DNA of 64,000 bases from Patescibacteria group bacterium (GCA_028748975.1 JAQTPI010000001.1:64354-128353); one strand, 5' to 3'; counted from the stretch's first letter, positions 39,347 through 60,242 are shown. A program made the numbers and translations. The notes: generated by a model from the sequence alone, not told the origin.

Positions 39347-39359
39347 AAAGGTTTAGTAA

Positions 39360-39500: not shown

Positions 39501-39557
39501 GTGGACAATTATATTATACCATTTTTATTAAACATGGTATAATGTTAAAAGAAGGTT

Positions 39558-40022: not shown

Positions 40023-40045
40023 TTGTTAGATTGTTGAATTGTTAA

Positions 40046-40170: not shown

Positions 40171-40202
40171 ATTGAACAATTTAGCAATTTAGCAATTAAA
40201 TA

Positions 40203-42743
40203 ATGCCAAATTATTTACCCTCATCTCCCTTGGAACCAAACCTATTAAGCAACCCATCCTTTGCCGTCTTTTTATTTTTACTCGGCATTCTCGTCCTAAT
40301 TTTTGTGGCGCTTTTAATTTACCGCAATTATTTGCGGCGGCACTATAAAATCCCGGCCAAATATCAGCCGGCGGTGCTTTTAATTACCGTGCCGAAAGAA
40401 GCGGCTGGCGATAAGAATCAGTCTGGTAATCTGACCGAAACCATGCGTTCGCAAATCGCCTGGGCCGAAGGATTTTTAACTCAGCTCGGTTCCATCAAGC
40501 CGCAAAAAGGCTTTAAGGCCTGGCTCTATGGCCGTCATGATAATTTGGCTCTGGAAATTGTGGCGCATCAAAAATTAATTTCTTTTTACGTGGTGGTGCC
40601 AGAGTATCTTAAGCAATTTCTGGAACAGCAGCTGCTGGCCCAGTACCCGAGCGCCCAAGTGGAAGAAGCAGAGGATTATAATATCTTCACTCCCAAATCT
40701 TTTGTCGCCTCGGCCAATCTGCAATTGGGTAAAAATTCCATGTTCCCGATTAAAACTTATCGTGAATTTGATAATGACCCCCTGAACGCCATCACCAATG
40801 TCTTAAGCAAACTGGAAGACACCGCTGGCGCCGTGGTCCAAATTTTAATTCGTCCGGCGCCGAGAAATTGGCACGATTATGGCTTGAAAGTTGTCACTGC
40901 TATGCAGCAGGGCAAACCTCTGAAAAAAGTTTTGAAAGCGCAGGAAGCGGACATTTTTAGCGCGCTCAGTAAAACTTACAATTTTTTTGCCGGTCCTGCG
41001 GCTAAAAAGGAAGACAATCAAATGGCGCCGGGGGTTTACCGCCTTTCGCCCATGGAAGAAGAAATGATTAAAAAAATTCAGGCCAAAAGTTCCAAAGCTG
41101 GTTTGCAATCCAACATTCGCGTGGTGGTTTCCTCGGAAAATTATCAGGCGCCGGATATCTACCTTCATAATATTTTAAATTCTTTTGGGCAGTACAACAT
41201 CACTGAATATGGCAATAATTTCAAAATCAGTAAAGCCAAAAGCAATGACCGCATTGTTTCGGAATCCATCCACCGTATTTTTGATAATAACCGTTCTTTC
41301 ATCTTGAACACGGAAGAGTTGGCATCGCTCTATCATTTTCCTCTGCCCACTTGCGAAACTCCCAATATTCGCTGGCTTTTGGCGCGTAAAGCCGCTCCGC
41401 CAATTAATATTCCGCCCACAGGAATTGTTTTAGGAAAAAATAATTTTCGCGGGGTGGAAACTTTAATCAGAATGAAAGAAGAAGATCGCATGCGCCATTT
41501 CTATATTATTGGTATGACTGGTACTGGTAAATCCGTTTTGATGGAAGAAATGGCCAAACAAGACATTGCTGAAGGCCGCGGTGTTTGTTTTCTTGACCCG
41601 CATGGCACGGCCATTGACCAAATTTTGCCTTGCATCCCAGAAAATCGTCAAAAAGATGTGGTCTATTTTGACCCCTCCGACGTGGAAATGCCAATTGGTT
41701 TAAATATGCTGGAAGCCAAGACCCAGCAGGAAATGGATTTTGCCGCTTCGGAAATGATTACGATTTTTTATAAACTTCTGCCCGACCCGTCCATGGGCGG
41801 TCCCATGTTTGAACACTACATGAGAAATGCTTTGCTTCTTTTGATGGCCGACCAGGCTGACCCGGGTACTTTGGTGGAATTGGGCCGCGTTTTTACTGAT
41901 GATGAATATCGCGCGGAAAAATTAAAACACACTCGTGATTTGTTGGTGCGTGACTTTTGGGAAAGAGAATATCCGGCCTCCCAGCGGGGGAGCATGGCTT
42001 CCGATATGCTGTCCTATGTTGTTTCCAAAACTGGCCGTTTTGTGGAAAATGAAATGATGAGAAACATCATTGGCCAGTCACGTTCCGGCTTCAATTTCCG
42101 CCAAGTCATGGATGAGGGCAAAATTCTTCTAGTCAATTTGTCCAAAGGAAAAATCGGCGAAATGAATAGTAACTTACTGGGTTTAATTATTGTTTCCAAA
42201 TTGCAAATGGCCGCCATGGGCCGTGCTGATTTGCCGGAAAATCAAAGAAAAGATTTTCTACTCTACATTGATGAGTTCCAAAATTATACCACCGATTCCA
42301 TGTCCACCATTTTGGCTGAAGCCAGAAAATATCGCCTCGGTCTAATTATGGCGCATCAATACATCGGCCAGTTGGTGAAGGGCCAGGACACTTCCATCCG
42401 TGACGCGGTTTTCGGCAACGTCGGCACGCTCGCTGTTTTCCGCATTGGCGCCGAAGACGCGGAATTTTTGGCCAAACAATACGCCCCGGTCTTTAATGAG
42501 TATGATTTAATCAATATTGAAAAATTTAACGCTTATGTTAGGCTATTAATAGATAACCAGGCCAGCCGGCCGTTTAATATGGCCACCCTGCCGCCCAGTT
42601 TTGGTAATCCGCAAACAGCAACTTCTATTATTAATAATTCCCGCCAAACCTATGGCCACTCCAAAGCGGAAGTGGAAGCGGAAATTGTGAGAAGGTCAAA
42701 GATAGGAGAGCTTGGCAAGGAAATGGAAGAAGAAGAAAAATAG
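40203..42743 (+). CDS. membrane-anchored P-loop ATPase of the FtsK/HerA superfamily (TraG/VirD4/DUF87-like)
   Basis: N-terminal transmembrane helix, a ~400-aa unknown domain, then Walker A GMTGTGKS and Walker B LLYIDEFQ followed by AHQ. Confidence 0.65.
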   Translation: MPNYLPSSPLEPNLLSNPSFAVFLFLLGILVLIFVALLIYRNYLRRHYKIPAKYQPAVLLITVPKEAAGDKNQSGNLTETMRSQIAWAEGFLTQLGSIKPQKGFKAWLYGRHDNLALEIVAHQKLISFYVVVPEYLKQFLEQQLLAQYPSAQVEEAEDYNIFTPKSFVASANLQLGKNSMFPIKTYREFDNDPLNAITNVLSKLEDTAGAVVQILIRPAPRNWHDYGLKVVTAMQQGKPLKKVLKAQEADIFSALSKTYNFFAGPAAKKEDNQMAPGVYRLSPMEEEMIKKIQAKSSKAGLQSNIRVVVSSENYQAPDIYLHNILNSFGQYNITEYGNNFKISKAKSNDRIVSESIHRIFDNNRSFILNTEELASLYHFPLPTCETPNIRWLLARKAAPPINIPPTGIVLGKNNFRGVETLIRMKEEDRMRHFYIIGMTGTGKSVLMEEMAKQDIAEGRGVCFLDPHGTAIDQILPCIPENRQKDVVYFDPSDVEMPIGLNMLEAKTQQEMDFAASEMITIFYKLLPDPSMGGPMFEHYMRNALLLLMADQADPGTLVELGRVFTDDEYRAEKLKHTRDLLVRDFWEREYPASQRGSMASDMLSYVVSKTGRFVENEMMRNIIGQSRSGFNFRQVMDEGKILLVNLSKGKIGEMNSNLLGLIIVSKLQMAAMGRADLPENQRKDFLLYIDEFQNYTTDSMSTILAEARKYRLGLIMAHQYIGQLVKGQDTSIRDAVFGNVGTLAVFRIGAEDAEFLAKQYAPVFNEYDLINIEKFNAYVRLLIDNQASRPFNMATLPPSFGNPQTATSIINNSRQTYGHSKAEVEAEIVRRSKIGELGKEMEEEEK

Positions 42744-42796
42744 AACAGATTGACACAGATATAAAACAGATAGTACACAGATACACAGATTTTTTC

Positions 42797-42838
42797 GTCT
42801 CCCTCTCCTTAATAAGGAGAGGGTCGGGGGAGAGGTCG
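42797..42838. repeat. family R3 module
   Basis: ctccctctccttaataaggagagggtcgggggagaggtcg. Confidence 0.65.
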
Positions 42839-42895
42839 CAAATATCTGTGCATCTGTGAAAATCCGTGCTCTATCTGTGAAAATTTGTTTATTAT

Positions 42896-43477
42896 ATGCT
42901 TGAAAACCTTTTCGGCTCGCGCACGCGCGTCAAATTATTGAAACTTTTCCTTTTGTCCGAAGGCCGTTTTTTTGTGCGCGAAATCGCGCGCCTGACCGGC
43001 GAGGAACTGAATTCTGTCCGGCGCGAACTGAAAAATTTGGTGGAGTTCGGCTTGGTCAAAGAAGTCAGCGCCGAAGTCGGCCGCGCCGCCAAAGATGAAA
43101 GCAAAAAATTTTATGAGGCCGATGTTAATTTCGTGCTCTATGATGAATTGAAAAATTTATTTTTGAAAACCCGTCTCTTGGTGGAGCGCCTCTTTATTAA
43201 AAACGCCAAGCGCCTTGGCCATGTCAAACTTTTGGTGCTCTCTGGTTTTTTTGTTAATGATTTGGATGCCAAAACCGACCTCCTCATCGCCGGCCAAATC
43301 AATAAGCGCGCCCTGGCCGGTTTCATCAATAAAATCAGCCACGAATTCAATCAGCCCATCCGCTACACCACCATGACTTCCACGGAATTCAATTATCGCC
43401 ACAAAATCACCGACAAATTTTTATTTGAAGTTCTGGAAGGCAGAAAAATCGTGGTAATTGATAATTTGGAGAAATAA
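42896..43477 (+). CDS. winged-helix (ArsR-like) DNA-binding protein with a C-terminal domain of unknown function
   Basis: N-terminal RTRVKLLKLF...REIARLTG...VRRELKNLVEFGLV helix-turn-helix. Confidence 0.5.
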   Translation: MLENLFGSRTRVKLLKLFLLSEGRFFVREIARLTGEELNSVRRELKNLVEFGLVKEVSAEVGRAAKDESKKFYEADVNFVLYDELKNLFLKTRLLVERLFIKNAKRLGHVKLLVLSGFFVNDLDAKTDLLIAGQINKRALAGFINKISHEFNQPIRYTTMTSTEFNYRHKITDKFLFEVLEGRKIVVIDNLEK

Positions 43478-43535
43478 ATAAATGAAAATAAAAAATCGGC
43501 CGCGTGCTCATGGCCGATTTTGATTTTGAAAATAT

Positions 43536-44432
43536 TTACGGGCTTAAGAGGTTTTTGGCCTTTTTTGCCACGTATTTTTGCGTTTTTTCATTCAGACTGT
43601 AAAATGAAAGATTTTGGAGAACTTGATTTTTTTCTATTGGATAATTTGGGCTAAGTTGCCTAAGGATGATGACTCCTGGCGGACTTTTATAAGCCAAATT
43701 TCGTTCACGCTTTTCATTGGTTTTCCAATTATAGCAATAGTAGGTGGTATCATTTTTTTTATTAACCCTGTTCCACCAGAGATAGTAATAGATATTGATT
43801 CCATTCCACTCGGCACGCGCTTGTTTTAAGAATTGAGCCCCGTTAACCGGTAGCAGAGGAATGTAATTTTTAATATCAAAATTACTGTCAAGCATGAAAG
43901 CCTTTTGACCATATTGCGACAAATCCAGTGGCACGCATTCTTTTTTTACTTTTGTCCGATAACTTTTTAGCAAATTAAGAACCGTCTTTCTGATTTGTCT
44001 CTGCTCGGCTTTGTTTATTTTTTTCCAGTCTGAGAATGATTTGTTGTACCACAGATCAGCTACATTAGGGATGCCATACCATTCTTTTGCTGAAAAGAAT
44101 TCATTTGTTATGTTTTTTTTCTTGCCAGAGGTTTCAATCTTTTGTCTCAAACATTTGTAAGAATCAGGATATTTTGATGGACCTTCCACCCACCAGAACC
44201 AATAGGTCATTACCGAATCTTGATTGTCCGGCGGAACGCGTTTAATCTGCCTGACAAACAAGGATTTATCAACGATTGGCACAAACGTTTCCCAATTCAA
44301 ATCCGCTGTTTCCAGTTGCGGACTGTTTTCATATTTTGCCAGATTGGGCGGTTGGGTGCGCCGGATATTCCAGGCAATTGCACAAAGAATTGCAGTCGCC
44401 ACCACCGCCACCACCGCTACTTTTACCCGCAT
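43536..44432 (-). CDS. hypothetical membrane-anchored protein
   Basis: GAAGGAGG site and an N-terminal transmembrane helix. Rich in Trp/Tyr. Confidence 0.5.
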   Translation of the reverse strand: MRVKVAVVAVVATAILCAIAWNIRRTQPPNLAKYENSPQLETADLNWETFVPIVDKSLFVRQIKRVPPDNQDSVMTYWFWWVEGPSKYPDSYKCLRQKIETSGKKKNITNEFFSAKEWYGIPNVADLWYNKSFSDWKKINKAEQRQIRKTVLNLLKSYRTKVKKECVPLDLSQYGQKAFMLDSNFDIKNYIPLLPVNGAQFLKQARAEWNGINIYYYLWWNRVNKKNDTTYYCYNWKTNEKRERNLAYKSPPGVIILRQLSPNYPIEKNQVLQNLSFYSLNEKTQKYVAKKAKNLLSP

Positions 44433-44492
44433 AAATTACCTCCTTCGGGTTTGGTTTTGAAAGGATATTTGATCATTTTAATCTTAGCAAAT

Positions 44493-44522
44493 TTTGAAAA
44501 ATAGGTCAAGAAGGTGTATAAT
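44493..44522 (+). promoter_or_regulatory. sigma70-type promoter
   Basis: TTGAAA-18-TATAAT upstream of the PAP2 gene. Confidence 0.5.
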
Positions 44523-44552
44523 AAAATTAGGTTGACAGTAATCCACAAATTA

Positions 44553-45107
44553 ATGTTAAATCTTGATTACCAAATCTTCAAATTAATCAACGACCTGGCT
44601 GGCAAAAGCCAGCTACTTGATTTTGTCGGAATTTTTTGCGCCAAATATTTGATTTTTGTCATCGCTGGCGTGGTTTTGGGCTGGTGGCTGGGGCTGCATA
44701 AAACCAAGCCCACCTTGGCCTGGCCAATCATTGGTCGGCGCAAGTGGCTGATTTTCGGCAATGTTTCGCTTTCCATTCTTTTAACCATGCTTTTGAATTA
44801 TGTTTTAGGTTTTTTAAAATTTCGCAGCCGGCCCTTTGTCAGTTTGCATACCGGCCGCCTCGTTAATCCTTTTTCCGAAAAATCTTTTCCCTCTGACCAC
44901 GCCGCCGTGGCTTTTGCCATTGCCCTGGCGGTTTTTCTTTATGATAAAAAGTTGGGAATTGTTTTAATGTTTCTTTCAGTGTTGGTGGGCCTGGGCCGGA
45001 TTTACGCCGGCGTGCATTATCCTTTAGATGTTGTTGGCGGAATTATCGTCGGCATTTTATCGGCCGTGTTTATGAAGTTGGTGGTGTTTAGGGGGGTTAG
45101 AGAATAG
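44553..45107 (+). CDS. PAP2-family phosphatase (undecaprenyl-diphosphatase-like)
   Basis: PAP2 motifs KFRSRP, PSDH and GRIYAGVHYPLDV. The start is set after the promoter, because the GTG start at 44514 in the ORF track lies inside the -10 element. Confidence 0.75.
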   Translation: MLNLDYQIFKLINDLAGKSQLLDFVGIFCAKYLIFVIAGVVLGWWLGLHKTKPTLAWPIIGRRKWLIFGNVSLSILLTMLLNYVLGFLKFRSRPFVSLHTGRLVNPFSEKSFPSDHAAVAFAIALAVFLYDKKLGIVLMFLSVLVGLGRIYAGVHYPLDVVGGIIVGILSAVFMKLVVFRGVRE

Positions 45108-47289: not shown

Positions 47290-47380
47290 TGCGAATTATT
47301 ACAAATTTTGTGCGAATTTTACGAACAGATTATTTGATGTTTATTCGCACAATTCGCAGGTAATTCGCCATTAATTCGCA
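47290..47380. repeat. family R4 inverted array after rsmH
   Basis: tgcgaattattacaaattttgtgcgaattttacgaac...attcgcacaattcgcaggtaattcgccattaattcgca. Confidence 0.75.
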
Positions 47381-47549
47381 TAAGACACGGTAAAAAACAA
47401 CGAGCGGGTGAAAAATGAATAAATTTAATAAATAGTAGGGTTAATAGAAATATATAGGGAAAGCGTAAGCCGTCGAACTGACGGTAAAAACAAAAATAAA
47501 AATGTCCAAGTATTTTTCATTTTGCAATGATAAGCAGAAAAGGTTAAAT

Positions 47550-49751: not shown

Positions 49752-49881
49752 TAATTTTTTTATAGCCTGCCCTGAGCGCTAGCGAAGGGCACCAGCCGAA
49801 TTTTGGGGAGGCAATATTAAAATCGCTAGAACCATCAAAAAATCCCTTTGTTACTCCGTTACTTTGTTACTTTATTATTCA

Positions 49882-49939
49882 CCGCTTCGGCCACGGGATC
49901 CTTCGCCTCGCCCATGCTTGGGCGATGGCTCAGGATAGA
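49882..49939 (-). repeat. family R1 element with an internal insertion, just upstream of murF
   Basis: ccgcttcggccacgggatccttcgcctcgcccatgcttgggcgatggctcaggatag. Confidence 0.6.
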
Positions 49940-49952
49940 CTTAGTAAAACCT

Positions 49953-51230
49953 ATGAAAAAACTTCTTGATAAAACTTTAGCCGTTTTAGCTAAAGCCATA
50001 CTAAAGAAATACCGCCCCAAAATAATCGGCATCACTGGTTCCATGGGCAAGACCTCGGCTAAGGAGGCGGTTTTCACTGTTTTGAAAGACAAATTTAATG
50101 TCCGCCAAAATATCAAAAACTATAATACTGAAATTGGCCTGCCCTTAACCATCATCGGCGCCAAATCCGGCGGCAAGAACTTTTTTAAATGGCTGTCTGT
50201 TTTTGGACGCGCCTTGTTTTTATTAATCATTAAAGATCAGAAATATCCGTCAGTTTTAATTTTGGAAATGGGCGCTGACCATCCAGGCGACATTCAGCAT
50301 CTGGTCAAAATTGCTCCTTGCGATTTGGCCATCGTCACTTCCATCGGCCCCACCCATCTGGAATTTTTTGGCTCGGTGGAAAACGTAAAAAAAGAAAAAG
50401 AAAACATTGTGGCCCACCAAAAACCCACCGCCGTTGCCATTTTGAATTTTGACGATGAATTGGTCATGGCCATGAAAAAGAAAACCCTGGCCAAAGTTAT
50501 CACCGTGGGTTTTGGCGACGGAGCTGACATTCGCGTCACCGACACCAGTTTTGGTTTGGATGAAAAGACCAAAAAACCCTATCTCACTTTCAAGCTCCAT
50601 CATGCTGGCTCCCTTGTGCCGGTCAAACTTACCAAATGTTTGGCCGCCACTCACGTTTATTCTTTTCTTTTTGCCGTCGCCATCGGCACGGAGATGGGTT
50701 TTAGCACCTTGGCCATGATTGAATTATTGAAAGATTTTCAACCGCCGCGTGGCCGCATGAATCTTTTATCCGGCATCAAACACACCGAGCTGATTGACGA
50801 TACTTATAATTCTTCCCCGAGCGCCGCGCTGGCTGCTTTGGCTGTTTTATCAAAAATGACTGCCAAAAGAAAAATCGCCGTCCTCGGCGACATGCTGGAA
50901 TTGGGCGCGGAAACGGAAACGGAACACCAAACAGTCGGTAGAAAAGTTGCGGAATTAAATTTGGATTTACTTTTGGCCGTGGGCGAACGCGCGCGCAATT
51001 TTATTGTGGGCGCTCTAGCTCTCGGCTTTGATAAAAATAAAATTTTTCATTTTGACAATGTTTCCGCCGCCGGCCAATTTTTGCAGGATAAAATGGAACC
51101 GGGTGATTTGGTTTTAATTAAAGGCTCGCAGGGCGCGCGCATGGAAAAAATTGTTAAAGAAGTCATGGCTGAGCCGGAACGCGCCAAAGAACTTTTGGTG
51201 CGTCAAGACGAGGAGTGGATGAGAAAGTGA
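49953..51230 (+). CDS. murF: UDP-MurNAc-tripeptide--D-Ala-D-Ala ligase MurF
   Basis: GITGSMGKTS P-loop and Mur ligase middle and C-terminal domains. The upstream ORF-track extension is a translated repeat element. Confidence 0.85.
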   Translation: MKKLLDKTLAVLAKAILKKYRPKIIGITGSMGKTSAKEAVFTVLKDKFNVRQNIKNYNTEIGLPLTIIGAKSGGKNFFKWLSVFGRALFLLIIKDQKYPSVLILEMGADHPGDIQHLVKIAPCDLAIVTSIGPTHLEFFGSVENVKKEKENIVAHQKPTAVAILNFDDELVMAMKKKTLAKVITVGFGDGADIRVTDTSFGLDEKTKKPYLTFKLHHAGSLVPVKLTKCLAATHVYSFLFAVAIGTEMGFSTLAMIELLKDFQPPRGRMNLLSGIKHTELIDDTYNSSPSAALAALAVLSKMTAKRKIAVLGDMLELGAETETEHQTVGRKVAELNLDLLLAVGERARNFIVGALALGFDKNKIFHFDNVSAAGQFLQDKMEPGDLVLIKGSQGARMEKIVKEVMAEPERAKELLVRQDEEWMRK

Positions 51231-51240
51231 CACGACAGTG

Positions 51241-51280
51241 TCATCCTGAGCCCCGCAAATGCGGGGCGAAGGATCTCGTT
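51241..51280 (+). repeat. family R1 element, 11 nt after the murF stop
   Basis: gtcatcctgagccccgcaaatgcggggcgaaggatctcgt. Confidence 0.75.
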
Positions 51281-51386
51281 GTTGTTTAACGGCGTCGCGG
51301 CCCGTTTCGTCAGTCGTTAAAGGTTTTACGTTTAATTAAATCGTAAAACGATACGGGTGGCGACGTCGTATAACCACAACCCGTAT

Positions 51387-51424
51387 ATTCGCAAAATTCG
51401 CCGGTAATTCGCACTAATTCGAAT
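51387..51424. repeat. family R4 half-array abutting a promoter
   Basis: attcgcaaaattcgccggtaattcgcactaattcgaat, ending 12 nt before the TTGACA at 51436. Confidence 0.6.
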
Positions 51425-51435
51425 AATTACAAAAT

Positions 51436-51464
51436 TTGACACCTTTTTTAATTTGTCTATAATA
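51436..51464 (+). promoter_or_regulatory. sigma70-type promoter
   Basis: TTGACA-17-TATAAT upstream of the zinc-ribbon peptide. Confidence 0.6.
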
Positions 51465-51537
51465 GAATATATATAAAATAAAAATAAAAACCAGCCGTGT
51501 CTTAAAAGGCCTAAGCTGGATTTTAAAGAATAAAGTT

Positions 51538-51705
51538 ATGAAAGAATGTTCTTTTTGCGGCATGCCTCTTAAAAGCGATGCCGAAGCTGACCTTTGTGAT
51601 TTTTGCCTCAATGATGACGGCAAAGAAATGCTGGCCGCTCCCGCAGCGGAAGAGCTTGATTTGGAAAACCCGACTTCCACCGGCTGGACCGAGACAGTGG
51701 AGTAG
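51538..51705 (+). CDS. hypothetical small zinc-ribbon peptide
   Basis: 55-aa ORF with CxxC...CxxC. Consensus promoter at 51436-51464. Not in the ORF track (too short). Confidence 0.35.
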   Translation: MKECSFCGMPLKSDAEADLCDFCLNDDGKEMLAAPAAEELDLENPTSTGWTETVE

Positions 51706-51725
51706 TGTTTTTTGTTTTTTTAGCA

Positions 51726-51773
51726 GTTTATCCCGAGCGGCCTCCTAGGGAATTTAGGAGTCGAGGGATCTCG
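51726..51773 (+). repeat. family R2 element, 21 nt after the small ORF stop
   Basis: gtttatcccgagcggcctcctagggaatttaggagtcgagggatctcg. Confidence 0.7.
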
Positions 51774-51800
51774 TGAAAATTTATTGTGATTTACAGTAGG

Positions 51801-51832
51801 AGCGAGTTTTTAACTTGCTCTTTTTTTATTCG
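51801..51832 (+). terminator. intrinsic terminator
   Basis: gagcgagtt-tttaa-cttgctc followed by T7. Confidence 0.5.
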
Positions 51833-51966
51833 CAAAATTCGCCCGCCTCAACTCGCGGTCGCTCATCGACGCGAGGCGGGCTCTAAATTCGCATTTATTA
51901 GCAGTTAATTTTTGGCTAAGATTAGCCAAAAAAATGAATTATTTTAAAGTTATCCACTTTTTGCTC

Positions 51967-51995
51967 TTGACAAGTTTCCCAAAGTGCGCTATAAT
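51967..51995 (+). promoter_or_regulatory. sigma70-type promoter
   Basis: TTGACA-17-TATAAT. The same upstream module as the 8325 promoter. Confidence 0.65.
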
Positions 51996-52041
51996 AGAGA
52001 TAGGTAAAATAAAAATAAAAGCACCTAAATAAGAGGGAAAA

Positions 52042-52179
52042 ATGACTAAAAGTAGCTGCGTAGGATTATTTGTGGTGGTTATGGTCGCCATGGCCATGTC
52101 CATCAGCTCGCTTTTCTCCGCCAGTAAGGAGAAAACCGAGCACTCCACGACGATTGAAGTCGTCGTGACGGCCGAGTAG
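52042..52179 (+). CDS. hypothetical 45-aa hydrophobic peptide
   Basis: AAGAGGGAAAAATG site and a consensus promoter at 51967-51995. The N-terminus is signal-peptide or transmembrane-like. Confidence 0.35.
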   Translation: MTKSSCVGLFVVVMVAMAMSISSLFSASKEKTEHSTTIEVVVTAE

Positions 52180-52299
52180 TTTTAAGAGAATTCTAATCAA
52201 AAAGACAAACCACTTCTGTTGGGCAGGAAAAGATTTAATTTTTCTGACCCGCACCAAAATTCATCATCCGGCCGCGGAGCATTCAACATTTGCTCCGCA

Positions 52300-52392
52300 C
52301 CATTTTCCTAATCGGTAGTGATAAACTAGTGGTTAGAAAAATGGGCAAACGACCCAGAAGTTTCAGAATTTAAAACGCACCTGGCGTGTCCA
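52300..52392 (+). repeat. island direct repeat, copy 1 (R5)
   Basis: ccattttcctaatcggtagtgataaactagtggttagaaaaatgggcaaacgacccagaagtttcagaatttaaaacgcacctggcgtgtccagg. The 47-nt imperfect hairpin is cccattttcctaatc / ggttagaaaaatggg. Confidence 0.8.
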
Positions 52393-52418
52393 GGCAAAAT
52401 TAAATAAGGAGGTGATGT

Positions 52419-52730
52419 ATGAATACGGGAATAAGCGCAGGAACTTTGTTCACAATTTATTTCTTCTCTCTGATGGGGCTTCTGATTTTGATGAATCCCC
52501 GTGGAGGAAAAAAAATTGTGGCCACGGTTGGTTTCGTTCTTTTCATTTTTGGAACGACCAGCGCCTTACCCAGACTTCTTTTGCTTTTGGGCGTCAATGT
52601 GACCATAGGGGATGTTGGTCACATATTTCGGTTACAGCCAATATTCATCTGGCTGGGTTTGATTATTTATCTTGCGGGATTGTCGGTCAATACGCTTCCC
52701 AAGAAAAAAATGAAACTCGTCCGAAACTGA
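52419..52730 (+). CDS. hypothetical small membrane protein (island gene 1)
   Basis: AAGGAGG site, two to three transmembrane segments. Preceded by island repeat copy 1. Confidence 0.45.
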   Translation: MNTGISAGTLFTIYFFSLMGLLILMNPRGGKKIVATVGFVLFIFGTTSALPRLLLLLGVNVTIGDVGHIFRLQPIFIWLGLIIYLAGLSVNTLPKKKMKLVRN

Positions 52731-52756
52731 TTCGCCCCAACATCAACCTGGCGGCG

Positions 52757-52852
52757 CGTCTGCGAAACATCGTAGACGCCCGCCAGCCCATTTTCCTAAT
52801 CGGTAGTGATAAACTAGTGGTTAGAAAAATGGGCAAACGACCCAGAAGTTTC
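52757..52852 (+). repeat. island direct repeat, copy 2 (R5)
   Basis: 96 bp with 3 mismatches to copy 1. Preceded by a GC-rich hairpin. Confidence 0.8.
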
Positions 52853-52901
52853 AAAATCTAAAACGCGCCTGGCGTGTCCAGGAAATATCAAGGAGGAAGA
52901 A

Positions 52902-53603
52902 ATGAAGAAGTTGTTTGTGGTTTTAATGGCGGTCGTTATTTTGACCCCCGTGATTTGTCTTGCCGGTAGCAGTGAAAAATTCGAGCAAATTGGTGAGCCG
53001 TTTTTGATTATTGTTCCTGCGGATTACCATCACGACACCTACATGGAGTCGTTTGGTAAAAAATATAGTTCAGAATTTCCCAACTACCGTAGCTCTGGCG
53101 TGACTGCTGACAAATTCAGTCAGGTCACAACCAAGCTTTTGCCGAATCAAAAACTCGCGGTTACGGTCTACTTGGTGAAGTCCTGGACAATTTCAAGACA
53201 AGAAATCATAACATTTCTGAAAGCCAATAATGCCTTTCTCGTTGGAGCTCAGGGCTTGGCCTTGACCTTTGAACAAAAGCGTGATCAACTTCCCATAGGG
53301 TGTATCACTTCTTTTGATCAGAAAGAACACCTCTGGCGAGACATCGAAGGACACACAATGGAATTGAAGCTGTTTAAATTTGGACCCCCTAATGAATACC
53401 ATCCCGCTTTCGATTCTTGGCTTGGCCCTTCAGATGCATTAAACATCGGAGATATTTTTTTTCTTTGTTTTCGTGATGGTTTTACCGCGGTTGAAAAGAA
53501 ACAAAACGAAATCGCGGTTGAAAAGAAACAAAACGAAATCAAAGATCTGGAGGAAAAACTCGCTAAGGCAAAAGAAGAATTAGAAAGACTGAGTGGAAAG
53601 TAA
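52902..53603 (+). CDS. hypothetical secreted coiled-coil protein (island gene 2)
   Basis: AAGGAGGAAGAAATG site and a signal peptide. The C-terminus carries a duplicated AVEKKQNEI unit from a 27-bp tandem repeat. Preceded by island repeat copy 2. Confidence 0.5.
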   Translation: MKKLFVVLMAVVILTPVICLAGSSEKFEQIGEPFLIIVPADYHHDTYMESFGKKYSSEFPNYRSSGVTADKFSQVTTKLLPNQKLAVTVYLVKSWTISRQEIITFLKANNAFLVGAQGLALTFEQKRDQLPIGCITSFDQKEHLWRDIEGHTMELKLFKFGPPNEYHPAFDSWLGPSDALNIGDIFFLCFRDGFTAVEKKQNEIAVEKKQNEIKDLEEKLAKAKEELERLSGK

Positions 53604-53661
53604 AAATTTCGTTAACAATCAATACTGGCGCGCCTATTCTTAACAGAATAGTCCGCGCCAG

Positions 53662-53718
53662 CCCATTTTCCTAATCGGTAGTGATAAACTAGTGGTTAGA
53701 AAAATGGGCAAACGACCC
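53662..53718 (+). repeat. island direct repeat, copy 3 (R5, 57-bp core only)
   Basis: Identical hairpin core cccattttcctaatcggtagtgataaactagtggttagaaaaatgggcaaacgaccc, then it diverges. Confidence 0.8.
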
Positions 53719-53782
53719 ATTTTCCTCCTGGCCTTAGGGGGAATGTAAAAAATTACATTACAAATTTTTAGGAGGAAGATCA

Positions 53783-54022
53783 ATGATAGCTTTTGGAATC
53801 ATCGTGATGCTAATTGGAATTCTTTTTGCCCTCCTTCATTTTTTTGCCGGGGGCAACAAGAAATGTCTGTCCGTGACCGGTCTCTGTTGCGCCATCTTTT
53901 CATTGACGCCGTCATTGAAGACATGGCTCCACAATGACCCGAACGCGCTGGTATTTCAGGTCATATCTTTTCTTATCGGCGTGATTCTTTTTTTCATCGG
54001 ACTGACAGGCAAAAAAAACTGA
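53783..54022 (+). CDS. hypothetical small membrane protein (island gene 3)
   Basis: TAGGAGGAAG site, two transmembrane segments, and a GG(N/K)KK loop resembling gene 1. Preceded by island repeat copy 3. Confidence 0.45.
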   Translation: MIAFGIIVMLIGILFALLHFFAGGNKKCLSVTGLCCAIFSLTPSLKTWLHNDPNALVFQVISFLIGVILFFIGLTGKKN

Positions 54023-54198
54023 AAACTGATCAGCCGAAATTTTCCCGAAGGAAAATTTCGGCTGATCCTTCCACTTTTGTCCCTCACATCTGGTGGGGAA
54101 TAAATAGGAAGAAAATAAAATTTTTTCCAATATAAAAAAACTTTCATAATTCATAGACCGTCTTCTGCCAAAAGCAGAGACAAGAGGAGGAAATAGTC

Positions 54199-54687
54199 AT
54201 GGAAAAGCACCTGAACAAATTATTTTGGATTTTTGTAATCATGGCGGCCTTTGCCCTTGTCTGCCGTTCCAAGCCGGCGCGGTCGCAATCCGCTTCCAAC
54301 TCCGCCGCCGCTTTGGAAAAAACCCGTCAGGCCATCGCCGTTTTGGCAACGCTTGACCGCGACAAGTCAATCACCGGCCTTTCGGAGAAATATTTTCTCT
54401 GGGAAGCCAGGGTGCGGCTGGAATTGATCAATGTTTCCGCCGGTGATCTGCGGGAACTGGTATCCGACATTGGCGCCGTCGCCAGTTGGACCAAAAGTCC
54501 CCATGGTGGAAAGATCGCCGACCTCGTCTTAGCCGAGATGGCCAAACGGGCGAAAAAAATGTCCAAAAACGAAGTATATCAATACTTCGTTAAAGACAAC
54601 AACGTCGCCTGGAAACTGGCCTATACTGGCGCCGGAAACCTGATGGAGGTCTGGGACAAGGCGGGCGTCACCGAGTATCCCGTGTAA
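54199..54687 (+). CDS. hypothetical secreted protein
   Basis: GAGGAGG site and a signal peptide. GC-rich (~55%) relative to the flanks. Confidence 0.5.
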   Translation: MEKHLNKLFWIFVIMAAFALVCRSKPARSQSASNSAAALEKTRQAIAVLATLDRDKSITGLSEKYFLWEARVRLELINVSAGDLRELVSDIGAVASWTKSPHGGKIADLVLAEMAKRAKKMSKNEVYQYFVKDNNVAWKLAYTGAGNLMEVWDKAGVTEYPV

Positions 54688-54796
54688 ATTTTGACAGTTT
54701 GTCTGTCAGGCCGTTGCATCATATGCAGCGGCCTTTTTTATTTGTTTTTAATTTTATCCCTAATTACTGATTACTAATTACTTATTACTCCTCAGT

Positions 54797-54823
54797 TTGA
54801 CACCAATCTTTTTTCATGATAAA
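54797..54823 (+). promoter_or_regulatory. sigma70-type promoter
   Basis: TTGACA-17-TAAAAT. Confidence 0.5.
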
Positions 54824-54904
54824 ATGGAATTATCAAACCAAAAGAAAATTCAAAACCTAAAAAAGCCCGTCTCTACCAAACAGAGTCAAGGCAAGGAGGA
54901 AAAA

Positions 54905-55450
54905 ATGAAAAAAAGTAGCTGGCTGGTACTGTTGATGATTTTTATAGCCATTTTTCAGACAAAATTGGCGTTATCACAGAGTAGCTCTGTTTCTACATCT
55001 CAAAACATTCCGATTTTTTTGGACATTCCCGACAGCGTCGTGATAAATTTTGCCAAATCTTTGACGCCTGGTGCTCTACCACCCACTAATCCGCCGCAGC
55101 CCTGGAAAAAATGGGATATCTGGCCTGGTTATGAAAAATCATATTTCTTAAACTTTGATTATCGGCGATCAAATAACCGAATGCCGTTTATATCTTTTAT
55201 GACTAATTATGATACGGTATATTCTTATTTTATTATTTTTAGGGTTCCTAAAAATCAGATCCAACCAAAGTTTGACCCAATCCTTAATGATCGGAAAGTC
55301 CGAAGAAAAATAATCTTTCACAAAATCGGATATTGGCGTTATTGCTGCCTTTGTGGTGGCCAGGCGATGAATATCACCCCCAATCACATCGCCCGCTCCT
55401 TGGCCGATCTGGAAGGAAATTTTGAACAAGACTATTTGGCTAAACCTTAA
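54905..55450 (+). CDS. hypothetical secreted protein
   Basis: AAGGAGG site and signal peptide MKKSSWLVLLMIFIAIF. The TTG start at 54797 in the ORF track coincides with the -35 of its promoter and is rejected. Confidence 0.45.
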   Translation: MKKSSWLVLLMIFIAIFQTKLALSQSSSVSTSQNIPIFLDIPDSVVINFAKSLTPGALPPTNPPQPWKKWDIWPGYEKSYFLNFDYRRSNNRMPFISFMTNYDTVYSYFIIFRVPKNQIQPKFDPILNDRKVRRKIIFHKIGYWRYCCLCGGQAMNITPNHIARSLADLEGNFEQDYLAKP

Positions 55451-55511
55451 TAGGTTTAGCCAACCCGAAGTCTCATGACTCCGGGTTTTTTTATTTGGCC
55501 TAATGGCCTCC

Positions 55512-55553
55512 TACGAATTACGAATCCCGAGTACTCGGGACGAATATACGAAT
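55512..55553. repeat. family R4 inverted half-sites flanking the TCCCGAGTACTCGGGA palindrome
   Basis: tacgaattacgaatcccgagtactcgggacgaatatacgaat. Confidence 0.6.
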
Positions 55554-55558
55554 GACGG

Positions 55559-55620
55559 TTATCCCCTCCTTAATAAGGAGGGGAAAGGGGAGGTAAACTC
55601 GCCGATAGGCGCGTATTATT
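55559..55620. repeat. family R3 module
   Basis: ttatcccctccttaataaggaggggaaaggggaggtaaactcgccgataggcgcgtattatt. Confidence 0.65.
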
Positions 55621-55691
55621 TCCGTTTGCTTTTTTGGTATATTTTTGGTACCATTATTTATGTTAATATGTTAAAAAGTTAAAATGCTTTT

Positions 55692-57824: not shown

Positions 57825-59039
57825 ATGGACCCCAAAACCTACCAACCAACCCATAATTACCAACCTCCGGAAAAAGCCAAAAAAAGCAAAAAGGCCAAAT
57901 GGCTTGGCCGGTTGTTTTTTCTGGTTCTGATTGCCGCGGTCATCGTGGTGCTTTTTGGTTTTGTTTTGCCGACCGCGGAAGTGACTGTCTATTTTTCTTC
58001 CACGGATTTGAGCAAGGACTATGAAGTTGTTTTGGACCAAAATTTAAACAGTCCTGATTCCGCGCGGCTGTCACTCCCGGCGCGGGTCTATGAAGAAACA
58101 GGGGAGGAACAGAAAAAATTTCAAACCACCGGCAAAAAAGATATGGGCGACAAGGCCTCCGGCTCGGCCACTTTTTTCAACTATACCGGCCGGCCCTATC
58201 CTTTGACTCCGACCGTGGAATTAAATCATTCATCCGGAAAGATTTATATTTTAAAAAGCGAATTAACCATTCCCGCTGCCACCGTTTCCGATACTGGTGA
58301 AATTGTGCCCGGAAAAATTCAAGGCGATGTGGAAGGCAAGGATGCCGGCGATTCTTTCAACCAAGCCGCCGGCCGTCTTAATCTTTCCATTTTAACACCG
58401 GAACTGCAAAGCAAAGTTTACGCCGATGTTGGGGCAATCAGCGGCGGCACCAGTAAATTAGTGTCCGTAATTTCGCAGGAAGATTTGGACAATGCTCAAA
58501 ATGAATTAAGCAATACCCTGACTTTGAAATTGAAAACAAAAATTAGGGATCGCCTAAAAAAGAATGAAGAAATGATGCGCGATGAACTCACCAATTTTGA
58601 AATTTTGAGCTCGGAAAAAAGCGTGGAGCTGGACAAAGAAGCCAAGGACTTTGATATGAAAATTACGGGCAAACTCAAAACCCTCGCCTTTAATGAAACC
58701 GAATTGAAGAATTTTCTCAAAACCCGCAGTCTAACCGATTTGCCTTCGGACAAAATGATCGCGGAAGATGATTTGGGTGAACTGCAAATCGCGGTTGATC
58801 AGGCCGATTTCAGTTTGGGCGTGGCTAAATTGAAAGTCAAAGCGACCTATAAAACTTTCCCCAAAACCGATTTGAGTTCGCTCCGCGATAAAATCAAAGG
58901 CCTCTCGGAAGTGGACGCCCGCCGCCTAATTTTAGGCACGGAAAACATCCGCGATGTTCATTTCAGTTTTTCTTTCAATCTTTGGAACAAACTGCCGACC
59001 AATGTCAATAAAATAAAAATCAAGGTGGGGAACAAATAG
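57825..59039 (+). CDS. hypothetical membrane-anchored protein (paralog of 6892-8022)
   Basis: N-terminal transmembrane helix and a long extracytoplasmic domain with a shared C-terminal motif. Confidence 0.5.
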   Translation: MDPKTYQPTHNYQPPEKAKKSKKAKWLGRLFFLVLIAAVIVVLFGFVLPTAEVTVYFSSTDLSKDYEVVLDQNLNSPDSARLSLPARVYEETGEEQKKFQTTGKKDMGDKASGSATFFNYTGRPYPLTPTVELNHSSGKIYILKSELTIPAATVSDTGEIVPGKIQGDVEGKDAGDSFNQAAGRLNLSILTPELQSKVYADVGAISGGTSKLVSVISQEDLDNAQNELSNTLTLKLKTKIRDRLKKNEEMMRDELTNFEILSSEKSVELDKEAKDFDMKITGKLKTLAFNETELKNFLKTRSLTDLPSDKMIAEDDLGELQIAVDQADFSLGVAKLKVKATYKTFPKTDLSSLRDKIKGLSEVDARRLILGTENIRDVHFSFSFNLWNKLPTNVNKIKIKVGNK

Positions 59040-59092
59040 TGCGTTTTTTTACACAAGGAATAATAAAAACTCAAAAAACATGGAGGATTGTT

Positions 59093-59539
59093 ATGAAAAT
59101 TAGAATAGCTGTTGTGGTCATGGTCTTTTTTGAAGGCCGGATACTTATTGGTAAAAAACGTTCTGATTCTTCAAAATCGTTTGCTGGTAAATGGCATATT
59201 CCTGGTGGAGATTTAAAATCAGGAGAAAAACTTTTAACAGGCGCATGCAGAGAAATATCTGAGGAAACCGGCCTTAAAATTGATTCAAAAAAAATACGGC
59301 AGATTGATGTGATTGGTTTTCTTAAACCCGACCAAGATGAATTCGTAAATATTCTTTGGTTGTATACAAAATTAGAAGCGAAAACAGAAAAAGAACGAGC
59401 TGCAATTTTGAATGCCAAGCCCAATGGAGATTTAGAAGCAATTAAATGGATTTTACCAAAAGATATTTTTTGTGAGCTGGATATATTATCTTTAAGTAGA
59501 ATGCCAACTTCCGCTAAAGTACTCTTAGAGAAGATCTAA
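59093..59539 (+). CDS. NUDIX hydrolase
   Basis: Nudix box GGDLKSGEKLLTGACREISEETGL. GGAGG site. Confidence 0.8.
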   Translation: MKIRIAVVVMVFFEGRILIGKKRSDSSKSFAGKWHIPGGDLKSGEKLLTGACREISEETGLKIDSKKIRQIDVIGFLKPDQDEFVNILWLYTKLEAKTEKERAAILNAKPNGDLEAIKWILPKDIFCELDILSLSRMPTSAKVLLEKI

Positions 59540-59562
59540 TTTTTATAGAGTAAAAATAACAA

Positions 59563-59598
59563 AAGCCAGTTGTTCCGACTGGCTTTTTATTTTCATTT
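59563..59598 (+). terminator. intrinsic terminator after the NUDIX gene
   Basis: agccagt-tgttccg-actggct followed by TTTTTATTTT. Confidence 0.75.
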
Positions 59599-59606
59599 GA
59601 CAAACT

Positions 59607-59635
59607 TTTTTATCGGCGTTAAGATAGAAATATAT
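59607..59635 (+). promoter_or_regulatory. sigma70-type promoter
   Basis: TTGACA-17-TAAGAT. Shares the 19-mer TTATTTTCATTTGACAAAC with the 60305 promoter. Confidence 0.5.
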
Positions 59636-59666
59636 TCACAAATTATCAAACAAAAAGGAGGTAAAA

Positions 59667-60242
59667 ATGGGAGTGCCACAACAAGGCGACTGGAAGACCG
59701 TTGCCAAACCAGGATGGTTTGGTGAAGCAAAAAATGATATGTTGGCTCATTTTGACCAAGACTACGGCGCGGGAAACTGGCGCATTCGGCATCGCTTGGG
59801 ACCGCGTCTACTGAATCTACCAGAAGCATTGCGGCTGTATGAACTTTGTTATGAACTACACTTCCTTAATCCTAACACCAGATTTCTGTGGACAAAATTA
59901 TTTGAGCAGGCTTGTGAAGTTTGGACAGAATATGAATCAGACGTTGAATCGGGATTAGACTATAGTATCCAAAAAGCCAAAGCGCCCCACTACGAGGATG
60001 TTTCAATTCGTATCATTATGAAACAATATGGACACCAATTCGGGGGCGAACGATTAATCCGCGTCCGTGCTGACAGTAATGACGTAATTGGCATCGCCCT
60101 CAGTTCCATTCATATTCCGTTTGTTTTTCCGGAATTTATTGAAAGTGACGCGCACGGAGTTCAATGGTGGAATAGACACCGGGGGTCGCTGGAACACTTC
60201 TGGCACGCCAATAAAGAGCTTCAAGTTGCTTTCAAAAAATAA
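59667..60242 (+). CDS. hypothetical protein
   Basis: Strong AAAGGAGG site and a promoter at 59607-59635. Higher GC than the flanks. Confidence 0.5.
   Translation: MGVPQQGDWKTVAKPGWFGEAKNDMLAHFDQDYGAGNWRIRHRLGPRLLNLPEALRLYELCYELHFLNPNTRFLWTKLFEQACEVWTEYESDVESGLDYSIQKAKAPHYEDVSIRIIMKQYGHQFGGERLIRVRADSNDVIGIALSSIHIPFVFPEFIESDAHGVQWWNRHRGSLEHFWHANKELQVAFKK

Follow-up and report, generated by a model that had tools for sequence, protein, structure and literature searches.

Structured sequences at the boundaries between genes have been described in several forms. The early mRNA of phage T7 carries RNase III hairpins between its genes, and in the sib/tI region of phage lambda the duplex is complete only in RNA that has read through the terminator; the Bacillus pyr operon holds three PyrR attenuator sites, in the leader and between the cistrons, where a binding/antiterminator structure precedes and overlaps the terminator. 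The repetitive extragenic palindromes and bacterial interspersed mosaic elements of enterobacteria (REP/BIME), linked to REP-associated tyrosine transposases (RAYTs), are dispersed in hundreds of copies of species-specific sequence and act as 3' stabilisers of mRNA or as weak terminators; in streptococcal blp bacteriocin/immunity loci and in phage “morons”, the repeats are regulator-bound promoters. We describe here a locus to be set beside these systems and beside integron cassette arrays: in a 64,000-nt stretch of DNA from a Patescibacteria group bacterium (GCA_028748975.1 JAQTPI010000001.1:64354-128353; this whole stretch is hereafter called the window), a hairpin-forming repeat recurs at three successive gene junctions in an island of small genes between murF and alaS.

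Patescibacteria, also known as the candidate phyla radiation (CPR), are reduced and mostly episymbiotic bacteria whose surface repertoire is thought to decide host attachment; to our knowledge, almost nothing has been described of the regulation or exchange of their surface genes. The junction element is real, conserved and structured; it is met in a narrow clade of Patescibacteria, and it matches no Rfam family and nothing in the literature that we found. We read it, tentatively and at a little less than an even chance, as the conserved core of an intercistronic or 3'-end RNA module within one operon, that is, a leaky terminator and probably a processing and stabilising site.

The Repeat and Its Setting in the Window

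The division and cell wall (dcw) cluster ends at murF (49848-51230), alaS starts at 55692, and the island lies between the two. It holds a 56-nt core, CCATTTTCCTAATCGGTAGTGATAAACTAGTGGTTAGAAAAATGGGCAAACGACCC, in three exact copies, all on the + strand (52300-52355, 52788-52843 and 53663-53718), whereas 100 shuffled sequences gave no match; neither of our two covariance models (R1, R2) finds a further junction copy in the 64 kb. Copies 1 and 2 remain in register over 104 nt with 94% identity (52300-52403 versus 52788-52891), and copy 3 has the core alone in common with them. The three near-identical hairpin repeats announced by the original prediction, a first reading of this DNA by a model, are thus genuine, except that its copy 2, made to start at 52757, took in part of an unrelated GC-rich hairpin (52748-52786).

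The core folds into a hairpin of 47-49 nt, in which a helix of 9 bp (GCCCAUUUU/AAAAUGGGC) is separated by a C x A mismatch from one of 7 bp, two of them G.U pairs, and the latter by a G x G mismatch from a last one of 4 bp, closed by a GAUAA loop; what had been taken for a single C/A bulge is, thus, a C x A mismatch accompanied by a second one. Each copy directly adjoins a different strong GC-rich hairpin (52273-52298, 52748-52786 and 53625-53661), in agreement with the terminator-like hairpins first noticed there. The small hairpin that follows, gggcaaacgaccc, draws on the same G-run as the base of the main hairpin, so that the two compete. The features of the island, from left to right, are as follows.

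51436-51463: promoter of the CxxC peptide gene, a perfect sigma-70 promoter
51538-51705, + strand: gene of a 55-aa CxxC...CxxC peptide, a core gene and the left border of the variable locus
51909-51934, no strand: palindrome TTTTTGGCTAAGATTAGCCAAAAA, about 30 nt upstream of the array promoter; conserved together with the promoter in relatives L003 (3061-3143) and L027 (1711-1761), and also present in L150 (see below)
51967-51995, + strand: array promoter TTGACA-17-TATAAT, 12/12, the sole sigma-70-like promoter ahead of the three junctions
52042-52179, + strand: first array gene, 45-aa hydrophobic peptide
52273-52298, + strand: junction 1 GC-rich hairpin (GCGGAGC...GCTCCGC), gene-specific
52300-52346, + strand: junction 1 main hairpin, type 1; formed by the U-tract CCAUUUUCC and its partner GAAAAAUGG, interrupted by C x A and G x G mismatches and including two G.U pairs
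52343-52355, + strand: junction 1 mini hairpin GGGCAAACGACCC, its G-run common with the base of the main hairpin
52380-52394, + strand: leader-A hairpin CCTGG-CGTGT-CCAGG, copy 1, followed by an AAAT..CAA stretch and a Shine-Dalgarno site
52419-52730, + strand: 103-aa cargo protein with hydrophobic segments (predicted membrane-spanning); no family match, no homologue in the other arrays
52748-52786, + strand: junction 2 GC-rich hairpin, gene-specific
52786-52834, + strand: junction 2 main hairpin, type 1; 20 bp; -25.4 kcal/mol in sense versus -19.6 in antisense
52831-52843, + strand: junction 2 mini hairpin
52868-52882, + strand: leader-A hairpin, copy 2
52902-53603, + strand: gene of a 233-aa exported protein that starts with a hydrophobic helix, continues with a C-type-lectin-like domain (about residues 25-190) and ends in a coiled coil
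53625-53661, + strand: junction 3 GC-rich hairpin, gene-specific
53661-53709, + strand: junction 3 main hairpin, type 1
53706-53718, + strand: junction 3 mini hairpin
53719-53780, + strand: leader B; the anti-Shine-Dalgarno stretch UUUUCCUCCU pairs with the Shine-Dalgarno region AGGAGGAAGA (z-score -6.5)
53783-54022, + strand: 79-aa cargo protein with hydrophobic segments (predicted membrane-spanning), the last junction-linked gene and a possible orthologue of an 89-aa protein in L003
54028-54067, no strand: perfect 18-bp hairpin closing the junction-linked part, followed by CTTCCACTTTTGTCC, a candidate decayed junction
54199-55450, + strand: two genes for proteins of 162 and 181 aa with N-terminal hydrophobic (signal-like) segments, in the island and without a junction element

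All three genes downstream of the junctions have strong Shine-Dalgarno sites. The candidate fourth, decayed junction after the 79-aa gene (54068-54110) was rejected, being detected by neither covariance model; a scan for tRNA and tmRNA genes returned none.

The Same Junctions in Related Genomes

Finding relatives by patterns drawn from the element was of little use, and they were reached through proteins instead. The strict pattern ATTTTCCTAATC-N13-21-GGTTAGAAAAAT has no match in genome and metagenome contigs, and the core pattern TTTTCCTAATCGGTAGT-N5-ACTAGTGGTTAGAAAA has none in viral contigs. Pattern TAGTGGTNAGAAAAATGGG is absent from viral contigs as well and is met at 16 loci in metagenome contigs, a single one of which is real (L019, from the same organism as contig L003), the others being coincidences in coding sequence; the arm of the second sequence type described below, TTTTCCAAGTTTTCTA, gave more than 120 random AT-rich matches in viral contigs, none of them with the right arm. 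No match came from a blastn search of a junction against phage and plasmid collections, and a MurF-based search for the locus in GTDB representatives brought up distant relatives only (36% identity); look-ups by exact sequence of MurF and of the 103-aa protein gave no record.

The layout of the window recurs on contig L003 (11.6 kb), whose MurF is 73% identical. After murF come the CxxC gene, again behind a perfect promoter, and a further perfect TTGACA-17-TATAAT ahead of the gene of a tiny hydrophobic peptide; next are seven genes, all of them with a gene-specific GC hairpin and a homologous hairpin in front, and the series closes with a canonical terminator, an additional gene and finally alaS. 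A third species, L027, with a CxxC peptide 84% identical, starts in the same way and shows three junctions up to the end of the contig; the small hydrophobic peptides that open the arrays measure 45 aa in the window, 33 aa in L003 and 27 aa in L027. One further copy stands at another locus (L150, after adk and map) from the same sample as L027, as a solitary unit around P0126, a protein 42% identical to the 233-aa protein of the window. The search for further copies in related genomes, thus, yielded seven junctions in L003, three in L027 and one in L150, and the family comprises 14 junctions, 13 in arrays and one in L150. L003, L027 and L150 stem from the metagenomes ERZ27247363, SRR8542065, JGI 3300029288, 3300069939 and 3300069203, and the organism of the window from SRR22315508.

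In relatives with 57-58% MurF identity, murF, the CxxC gene and alaS are directly adjacent and there is no island; because these more distant relatives have the three genes contiguous, we regard the array as a lineage-specific insertion, which answers the synteny question raised with the original prediction. The 55-aa CxxC peptide, first counted among the island genes, does not belong there: tblastn finds its gene after murF in L003 to L010, including relatives where alaS comes next, and its presence in relatives devoid of the island makes it a core gene and not part of the array. The peptide is zinc-ribbon-like (CxxC...CxxC, 41-57 aa) and bears no family annotation; in all the relatives that were examined, its gene, under a perfect promoter of its own, comes after murF.

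The locus is variable even between strains, as indicated by L028: it matches L027 over 504 nt at 98.8% identity, and just past the CxxC gene the two become completely different. Between species, DNA similarity within the island is limited to the region of the promoter and palindrome, the junctions and leader B, so that the joints are better conserved than the genes they join. With conserved junctions, unrelated cargo and a strain-variable locus, the cassette-like behaviour that had been suggested for the array is even more pronounced than first noted.

Structure, Covariation and Strand of the Junction Hairpins

Three sequence types can be distinguished. Type 1 (three copies in the window, four in L003) reads CCAUUUUCC ... 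GUGGU(U/A)AGAAAAAUGGG; type 2 (two in L003, three in L027, one in L150) reads CUUUUCCAAGUUUUCUA ... UAGAA(A/G)(A/G)UUU(A/G)GAAAAGGGG; type 3 (one in L003) reads UUUUUUCUGAAUAUUA ... UAGUAUUUAGGAAAAAG. Common to all of them are, on the 5' side, the GC stem, a C-run, U4-6 and CC, and, on the 3' side, a G, A4-5 and a G-run, with an AU-rich upper stem; in all types there is an unpaired position next to the U:A helix, which is a C x A mismatch in most copies and a bulged U in one. A mini hairpin made of a G-run and a C-run follows the main hairpin in every type (GGGCAAACGACCC in the window; GGGAAGAGCCC, GGGGAAACGCCCC and GAGCAGACGCTC in the relatives). On the gene strand, the GC hairpin precedes the conserved hairpin, within 0-2 nt, at 13/13 array junctions and in L150, and every junction lies 20-120 nt past a stop codon. 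The main hairpins are 37-58 nt long, except for one of 77 nt at the first L003 junction (3455-3531), which owes its length to an apical insertion; this 28-nt insertion has a small hairpin of its own (UCAUUCCCAU-GUAG-AUGGGAAUC), which indicates that the tip of the main hairpin tolerates extra structure.

Types 1 and 2 are related: a covariance model built from type 2 only and run with filters off over the whole window has type-1 copies as its two best matches. When the type-1 alignment is scored, pairing holds in 90% of its cells and drops to 38-59% once the 3' partners are shifted by 1-3 columns; compensatory changes were looked for and three double-sided ones are present (AU to UA, AU to CG and UA to GC), and the covariation score was reached in 3 of 500 shuffles. 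As the copies are few and related, this type-1 covariation is supportive and suggestive of a conserved fold, not decisive. Between types 1, 2 and 3, the sequence of the upper stem is replaced wholesale with the pairing kept. One has to note that MAFFT placed some members out of register in the all-type and leader-A alignments; covariation across types and in the leaders was, therefore, read directly from the sequences.

The sense RNA is the more stable one in 12/13 hairpins, with summed energies of -259 kcal/mol against -194 kcal/mol for the antisense, and the hairpins contain 2-4 G.U pairs in sense and 0-1 in antisense; the exception is the insertion-bearing L003 copy (2 versus 4), which is also the sole hairpin favoured in antisense. 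Such a bias is the signature expected of a transcribed sense structure. As for described RNA families, an Rfam 15 covariance scan of the window at gathering thresholds gave no match, permissive settings gave chance-level matches only (with E allowed to reach 10 for the island and 1 for L003 and L027), and our search of the literature on attC sites or integrons in Patescibacteria and on intergenic hairpins in CPR bacteria retrieved nothing relevant.

Leaders Downstream of the Junctions

After the junction, copies 1 and 2 continue as ..AAAACGC(A/G)CCUGG-CGUGU-CCAGG.AAAU..CAA..GGAGG. This leader, called leader A, is found in four further places before unrelated genes, its stem changed and still paired each time:

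Window, copies 1 and 2: CCUGG / CCAGG
L027: CCUGC / GCAGG
L003: UCUGC / GCAGA
L003 (second): CCUGCC / GGCAGG
L150, 5' untranslated region (UTR): CCACCA / UGGUGG

Of the two mutually exclusive hairpins proposed for this stretch, these five covarying stems settle the matter in favour of cctgg/ccagg; acgc/gcgt is not the one favoured by the comparative data. The leader of copy 3, leader B, is 83% identical over 70 nt to L003 8717-8785, ahead of the 89-aa gene, and its pairing with the Shine-Dalgarno sequence is kept there (GGGGGA for the 89-aa gene). Hairpins and leaders are seen in the combinations type 1 + A, type 2 + A, type 1 + B and type 3 + B, a free combination which shows that the modules have been reshuffled.

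The solitary L150 unit is instructive in this respect. Ahead of its gene stand, in this order, a TTGACA...TACAAT promoter of its own, the palindrome TTTTTGGCTAA..TTAGCCAAAAA and the leader-A hairpin; behind the gene come a GC hairpin, the main hairpin (type 2) and the mini hairpin, and then an unrelated gene. The main hairpin, thus, travels with the 3' side of the unit, and leader A can work without it. By its placement, the main hairpin is a junction or 3'-end element rather than a 5' leader, and, as far as sequence comparison can tell, it is the leaders and not the main hairpin that combine covarying structure, sense orientation and a position upstream of a start codon, as a cis-regulatory mRNA leader would. 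Of the three candidates in the original prediction, the conserved cis-acting structured RNA is the best supported, in agreement with the compensatory changes, the sense bias and the leader covariation; the further idea of a leader shared by paralogous genes does not hold, the flanked genes being unrelated and the L150 copy lying at a 3' end.

Transcription Signals

Near-consensus sigma-70 promoters are found at three places only in the island (51436, 51967 and 54797, matching 12, 12 and 11 of 12 positions), the last one belonging to the gene of the 181-aa protein. A single 12/12 promoter heads each array (window; L003 3115-3143; L027 1774-1802), each with a palindrome before it; in the window, this is the consensus promoter correctly recognised at first sight ahead of the 45-aa peptide (51967-51995). 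The palindrome, TTTTTGGCTAA-N-TTAGCCAAAAA, is perfect at 51909-51934 in the window, 3061-3084 in L003, 1711-1738 in L027 and 3010-3033 in L150; it is situated upstream of the -35 in three loci and within the 5' UTR in L150, and may be an operator or a (bidirectional) insulator.

Terminators of the canonical kind, with 6-7 U, are confined to the ends of the arrays. The GC stems of the junctions are followed by 4-6 U after a C-rich spacer of 1-4 nt, and a terminator scan flags two L003 junctions (r2 and r6) and none in the window; these short U-tracts and few flags fit leaky termination. With the sole strong promoter at the head and short U-tracts at the junctions, the array is most simply read as one operon whose junction stems are leaky or non-terminating.

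Several other signals were considered at the junctions and discarded. A sigma-54 promoter has the wrong GG-N10-GC spacing, a SigH-like or extracytoplasmic function (ECF) promoter would have a spacing that differs between species, and the CGGTAG match to the RfaH ops element in the window is not conserved in L003. An upstream open reading frame (ORF) starting at the AUG of the right arm (MGKRPRSF..) has no Shine-Dalgarno sequence, its AUG is absent in type 2 and its frame is not conserved in L003; finally, an antisense small RNA ending at a minus-strand mini hairpin would have a stem of just 3-5 bp.

A Possible RNA Processing Module

The observations from which our preferred reading starts are the anatomy of the junctions, their conservation, covariation and sense-strand bias, the single promoter per array and the turnover of the cargo. 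The array would be one long operon of unrelated small membrane or surface-protein genes, transcribed from one perfect sigma-70 promoter associated with a palindrome. At the end of each cistron, the gene-specific GC-rich stem and its short U-tract would form at best a leaky intrinsic terminator, or a 3' stabiliser; the same U-tract would then pair with the downstream A-tract in the conserved AU-rich hairpin of about 20 bp. Because the U-tract is the 5' arm of this main hairpin, the latter would form only in read-through RNA. The mini hairpin would compete for the G-run at its base, and the leader hairpin (type A, or type B with its anti-Shine-Dalgarno pairing) and the Shine-Dalgarno site of the next gene would complete the junction. 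We propose that the long duplex, stacked on the GC stem, may mark the junction for an endonucleolytic cut of the RNase III type; the resulting units would have the mini hairpin and leader at their 5' end and the GC stem at their 3' end, each cistron becoming a separately stabilised mRNA whose translation would be set or tuned by its leader. The near-identical cores of 45-56 nt may, in addition, serve as portable homology for cassette swaps by ordinary recombination.

Several points weigh against this reading. Read-through, 3' ends, cleavage and stabilisation are all things that we infer; the comparison covers three species and three types only, the covariation counts are small, the copies are related by descent and the controls are suggestive only. 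The strand bias would be explained likewise by folding of single-stranded DNA of the + strand, in which G.T pairs have the same effect, and an exact 56-nt core beside a leader that has diverged by 13% is explained by gene conversion or recent spread no less than by selection. One has to keep in mind, moreover, that consensus scanning is blind to promoters used by an unlisted type of sigma factor or by an activator.

Alternative Explanations

The junctions could be DNA recombination sites of a cassette system other than integrons, the hairpin of single-stranded DNA being used by an unlinked tyrosine or HUH recombinase and the array acting as a sink for mobile small genes. Conserved junctions around unrelated cargo in three species, the missing island of distant relatives together with the divergence at this place of 98.8%-identical strains, and copies that are identical within and different between genomes, L003 mixing types 1-3 like a chimera of window-like and L027-like cassettes, all point in this direction, as do the module at the 3' end of a solitary unit at another locus (L150) and the variable apical insertion at L003 3455-3531, reminiscent of the terminal structure of attC. 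On the other hand, a scan of 20 larger ORFs spread across the window (343-28076, 35026-45107 and 57825-60242) turned up neither Phage_integrase nor any other recombinase domain, so that the early impression of no visible integrase holds for these ORFs; the precomputed Pfam matches of called genes contain no IntI or Phage_integrase in L003, L027 and L150 and no recombinase of any kind in L003 or L150. The boundaries of homology do not point to a crossover at a set position within the hairpin, the leaders next to it are clearly RNA elements, and homologous recombination at the 45-56-nt cores would account for the shuffling without a dedicated enzyme, being sufficient for cassette swaps in bacteria that take up DNA. 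The original prediction went as far as an attC site array with a GTTAG/CTAAT core and an extrahelical base, which does not hold: the base of the stem is CCCAUUUU/AAAAUGGG and not RYYYAAC/GTTRRRY, the supposed core is not conserved (it is mid-stem and in the window only, type 1 of L003 having GTAAG at this place and type 2 TTTAG), the irregularities consist of mismatches (C x A, G x G) instead of bulged bases, the element is in general shorter than attC sites, and 12/13 hairpins fold better on the mRNA-sense strand, the wrong one for attC. We consider a dedicated recombination site unlikely; we give an equally small chance to a broader version, in which the junctions would be integron-independent docking sites, at fixed chromosomal hotspots, for cassettes of unrelated genes (small membrane and surface proteins, among them lectin-fold binders of the diversity-generating-retroelement type), acting through an unlinked recombinase or through transformation and recombination at the 45-56-nt cores, and doubling as RNA signals for expression from the resident promoter.

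That the hairpin is a selfish palindromic repeat, akin to miniature inverted-repeat transposable elements (MITEs) or REP, which has spread among the terminators of the locus with no or incidental function, seems to us distinctly improbable. Exact copies within a genome, genomes rich in other dispersed intergenic repeats and inverted ends (CCCATTTTCC / GGAAAAATGGG) are what such an element would show; this one, however, is not dispersed, all three copies in the 64 kb being inside the array and no others being found by either covariance model, it keeps the same strand and position relative to the GC hairpin in 14/14 cases across three species, no target-site duplication was seen, and its conservation at orthologous arrays with compensatory changes speaks for constraint. 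We hold it very unlikely that each junction combines a terminator with a dedicated promoter or operator, the palindrome being bound by a regulator or an alternative sigma factor and the array forming a tandem regulon, even if a terminator-like GC hairpin stands just ahead of the element at every gene, the right arm (TAG..TTAGAAAA.GGG) is more conserved than pairing requires, and the L150 module precedes a gene without any other visible promoter. When TTAGAA is taken as the -35, the hexamers 17 nt further on range from GATTAT to CCTGCC, and no -35/-10 pair of constant spacing can be placed across the 14 junctions; elsewhere in these genomes, perfect TTGACA-17-TATAAT promoters are in use, the GG-N10-GC spacing of sigma-54 is absent, and compensatory changes and G.U asymmetry are unexpected for a DNA palindrome bound by a protein. 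The remark that neither a sigma70 nor a sigma54 promoter could be fitted inside the repeat was, thus, sound, and the amplified promoter-plus-leader module offered alongside it finds no support as a promoter.

Cargo Genes and a Link to Diversity-Generating Retroelements

Searches by tblastn and by all-against-all blastp among the array proteins of the three species returned no significant similarity save for the last gene before alaS (181 aa in the window, 205 aa in L003, 27% identity); the pair of proteins behind leader B (79 aa, and 89 aa in L003) shows a weak similarity, with a global alignment z of 3.5. Most cargo proteins are, judging from their sequences, small and hydrophobic or provided with an N-terminal signal-like hydrophobic segment, and seven island proteins compared with Pfam, PHROGs, PADLOC and NCBIfam gave nothing above noise. 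The initial statement that nothing in the island has a recognisable function, hence, stands for most of the cargo, which has no family matches; it does not for the 233-aa protein, which has 565 homologues among representatives, forming a large uncharacterised family with a C-type-lectin-like fold that includes variable proteins of diversity-generating retroelements (DGRs) elsewhere. The profile of this family returned nothing from Pfam and PDB sequences, and Foldseek nothing from PDB.

One homologue, P0128, from a Patescibacteria metagenome-assembled genome (L152 8001-11337), adjoins bAvd and a reverse transcriptase (RT); its C-terminal 133 nt have a second copy at 89% identity, and it is at adenines of this second copy that the two differ. 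With its 133-nt pair of variable and template repeats (VR/TR), bAvd, RT and a second target gene, the P0128 locus is a textbook and complete DGR. For the 233-aa gene of the window, no template repeat lies within the 64 kb and no RT is found among the 20 larger ORFs scanned; this protein is a lectin-fold and probably surface-exposed binder of a DGR-target family and is not visibly diversified here. A cruciform role in a DGR was also considered for the GC hairpins and rejected, as they follow every gene and not just the lectin-fold one. The coiled-coil tail of the same gene contains a perfect 27-nt tandem duplication (53486-53539, AVEKKQNEI x2) that looks like a recent in-frame slippage.

Other Repeats and Neighbours

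Several other repeats were recorded in and around the island. A dispersed intergenic repeat of about 60 nt (..CCCGAGCGGCCTCCTAGGGAATTTAGGAGTCGAGGGATCTCG..), about 85% identical between copies and separate from the junction hairpin, is found at 51723-51782, 8778-8839 (- strand), 24938-25001, 19115-19163 and 36174-36223. An ATTCGC-rich motif (TATTCGCAAAATTCGCC) lies upstream of promoters at 51383-51426, 51827-51843, 47339-47383, 8223-8258 and 26976-27015, and the stretch 55525-55556, with four ACGAAT, is akin to it. Another repeat, consisting of a CCCCTCCTT..AAGGAGGGG hairpin and a TCGCCGATAGGCG hairpin, is present at 55559-55616, 12599-12661 and 30134-30195, and in L027 at 1540-1707; it borders the island on its right side in the window and on its left side in L027, where it is present as an inverted pair beside the L027/L028 breakpoint, and may be a recombination hotspot. 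Runs of TTACT/ATTAC pentamers (e.g., CCCTAATTACTGATTACTAATTACTTATTACTCC) come after terminators (window 54755-54790, L150 3932-3960, L028 975-1010), and hairpin repeats of the GTCATCC..GGATGAC type (e.g., GTCATCCTGAGCCCCGCAAATGCGGGGCGAAGGATCTCG), a REP-like family, are seen directly after murF in the window (51240-51280), at 900-965 in L028, and in or beside genes in the relatives. About 9 kb upstream of the island, an 846-aa ORF (40203-42743) with TrwB/TraG/VirD4-type coupling-protein domains adjoins the gene of a small helix-turn-helix protein of 193 aa (42896-43477).

Significance

The locus is a hotspot beside essential genes whose set of small membrane or surface proteins changes from species to species, and even from strain to strain. 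Should the junctions be a module for RNA processing or termination, they would form a new family of RNA motifs and offer a rare insight into the way CPR operons are built; should they also mediate the exchange of cassettes, they would constitute a gene-capture system outside the integron paradigm. The covariance models R1 and R2 (or the patterns CCATTTTCC...GAAAAATGGG and TTTTCCAAGTTTTCTA...TTTAGAAAAGGGG) provide a direct handle for metagenome surveys.

Comparison with Known Systems

The arrays are like those of integrons and of clusters of attC sites lacking integron-integrases (CALINs) in their co-oriented, mostly promoterless and unrelated small ORFs with imperfect palindromes between them and one promoter at the end; in both, the palindromes are near-identical within a genome and diverged between species, the cargo differs in close relatives and the element is 3' of the ORF. 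They differ in having no RYYYAAC/GTTRRRY core, in showing a C x A mismatch instead of extrahelical bases, and in that no IntI was found. In length, the element (44-50 nt; main hairpins of 37-58 nt, with one copy of 77 nt) lies mostly below the 57-141 nt of attC sites. The bottom strand is the folded one in attC, whereas here the mRNA-sense strand folds better; each junction here also has a gene-specific GC hairpin and conserved RNA leaders.

With the hairpins of phages T7 and lambda, the element has in common long imperfect intergenic duplexes in polycistronic RNA, the pairing of a U-tract with an A-tract only after read-through and a length of about 20 bp with an internal mismatch; unlike them, and with no similarity in sequence, it stands at every junction of a variable chromosomal array, where cleavage would be a predicted event. 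REP/BIME are likewise imperfect palindromes past stop codons within operons, whereas the element forms one array in 64 kb, in constant orientation and always adjoining a separate GC hairpin; the GTAG end of REP is present in the stem of the window copies and absent in the L003 and L027 versions. As with the PyrR attenuators, the same structured RNA recurs in one operon; the conserved hairpin here, however, follows the terminator-like stem without overlapping it. The blp loci and the morons also have strain-variable genes of small membrane proteins between conserved non-coding repeats that permit homologous shuffling, with the difference that, in our case, the repeat is a conserved hairpin with no evident promoter. 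All in all, the element appears akin to known kinds, namely cassette arrays and the hairpins at which transcripts are processed or terminated between cistrons; the chance that it is something more unusual is modest.

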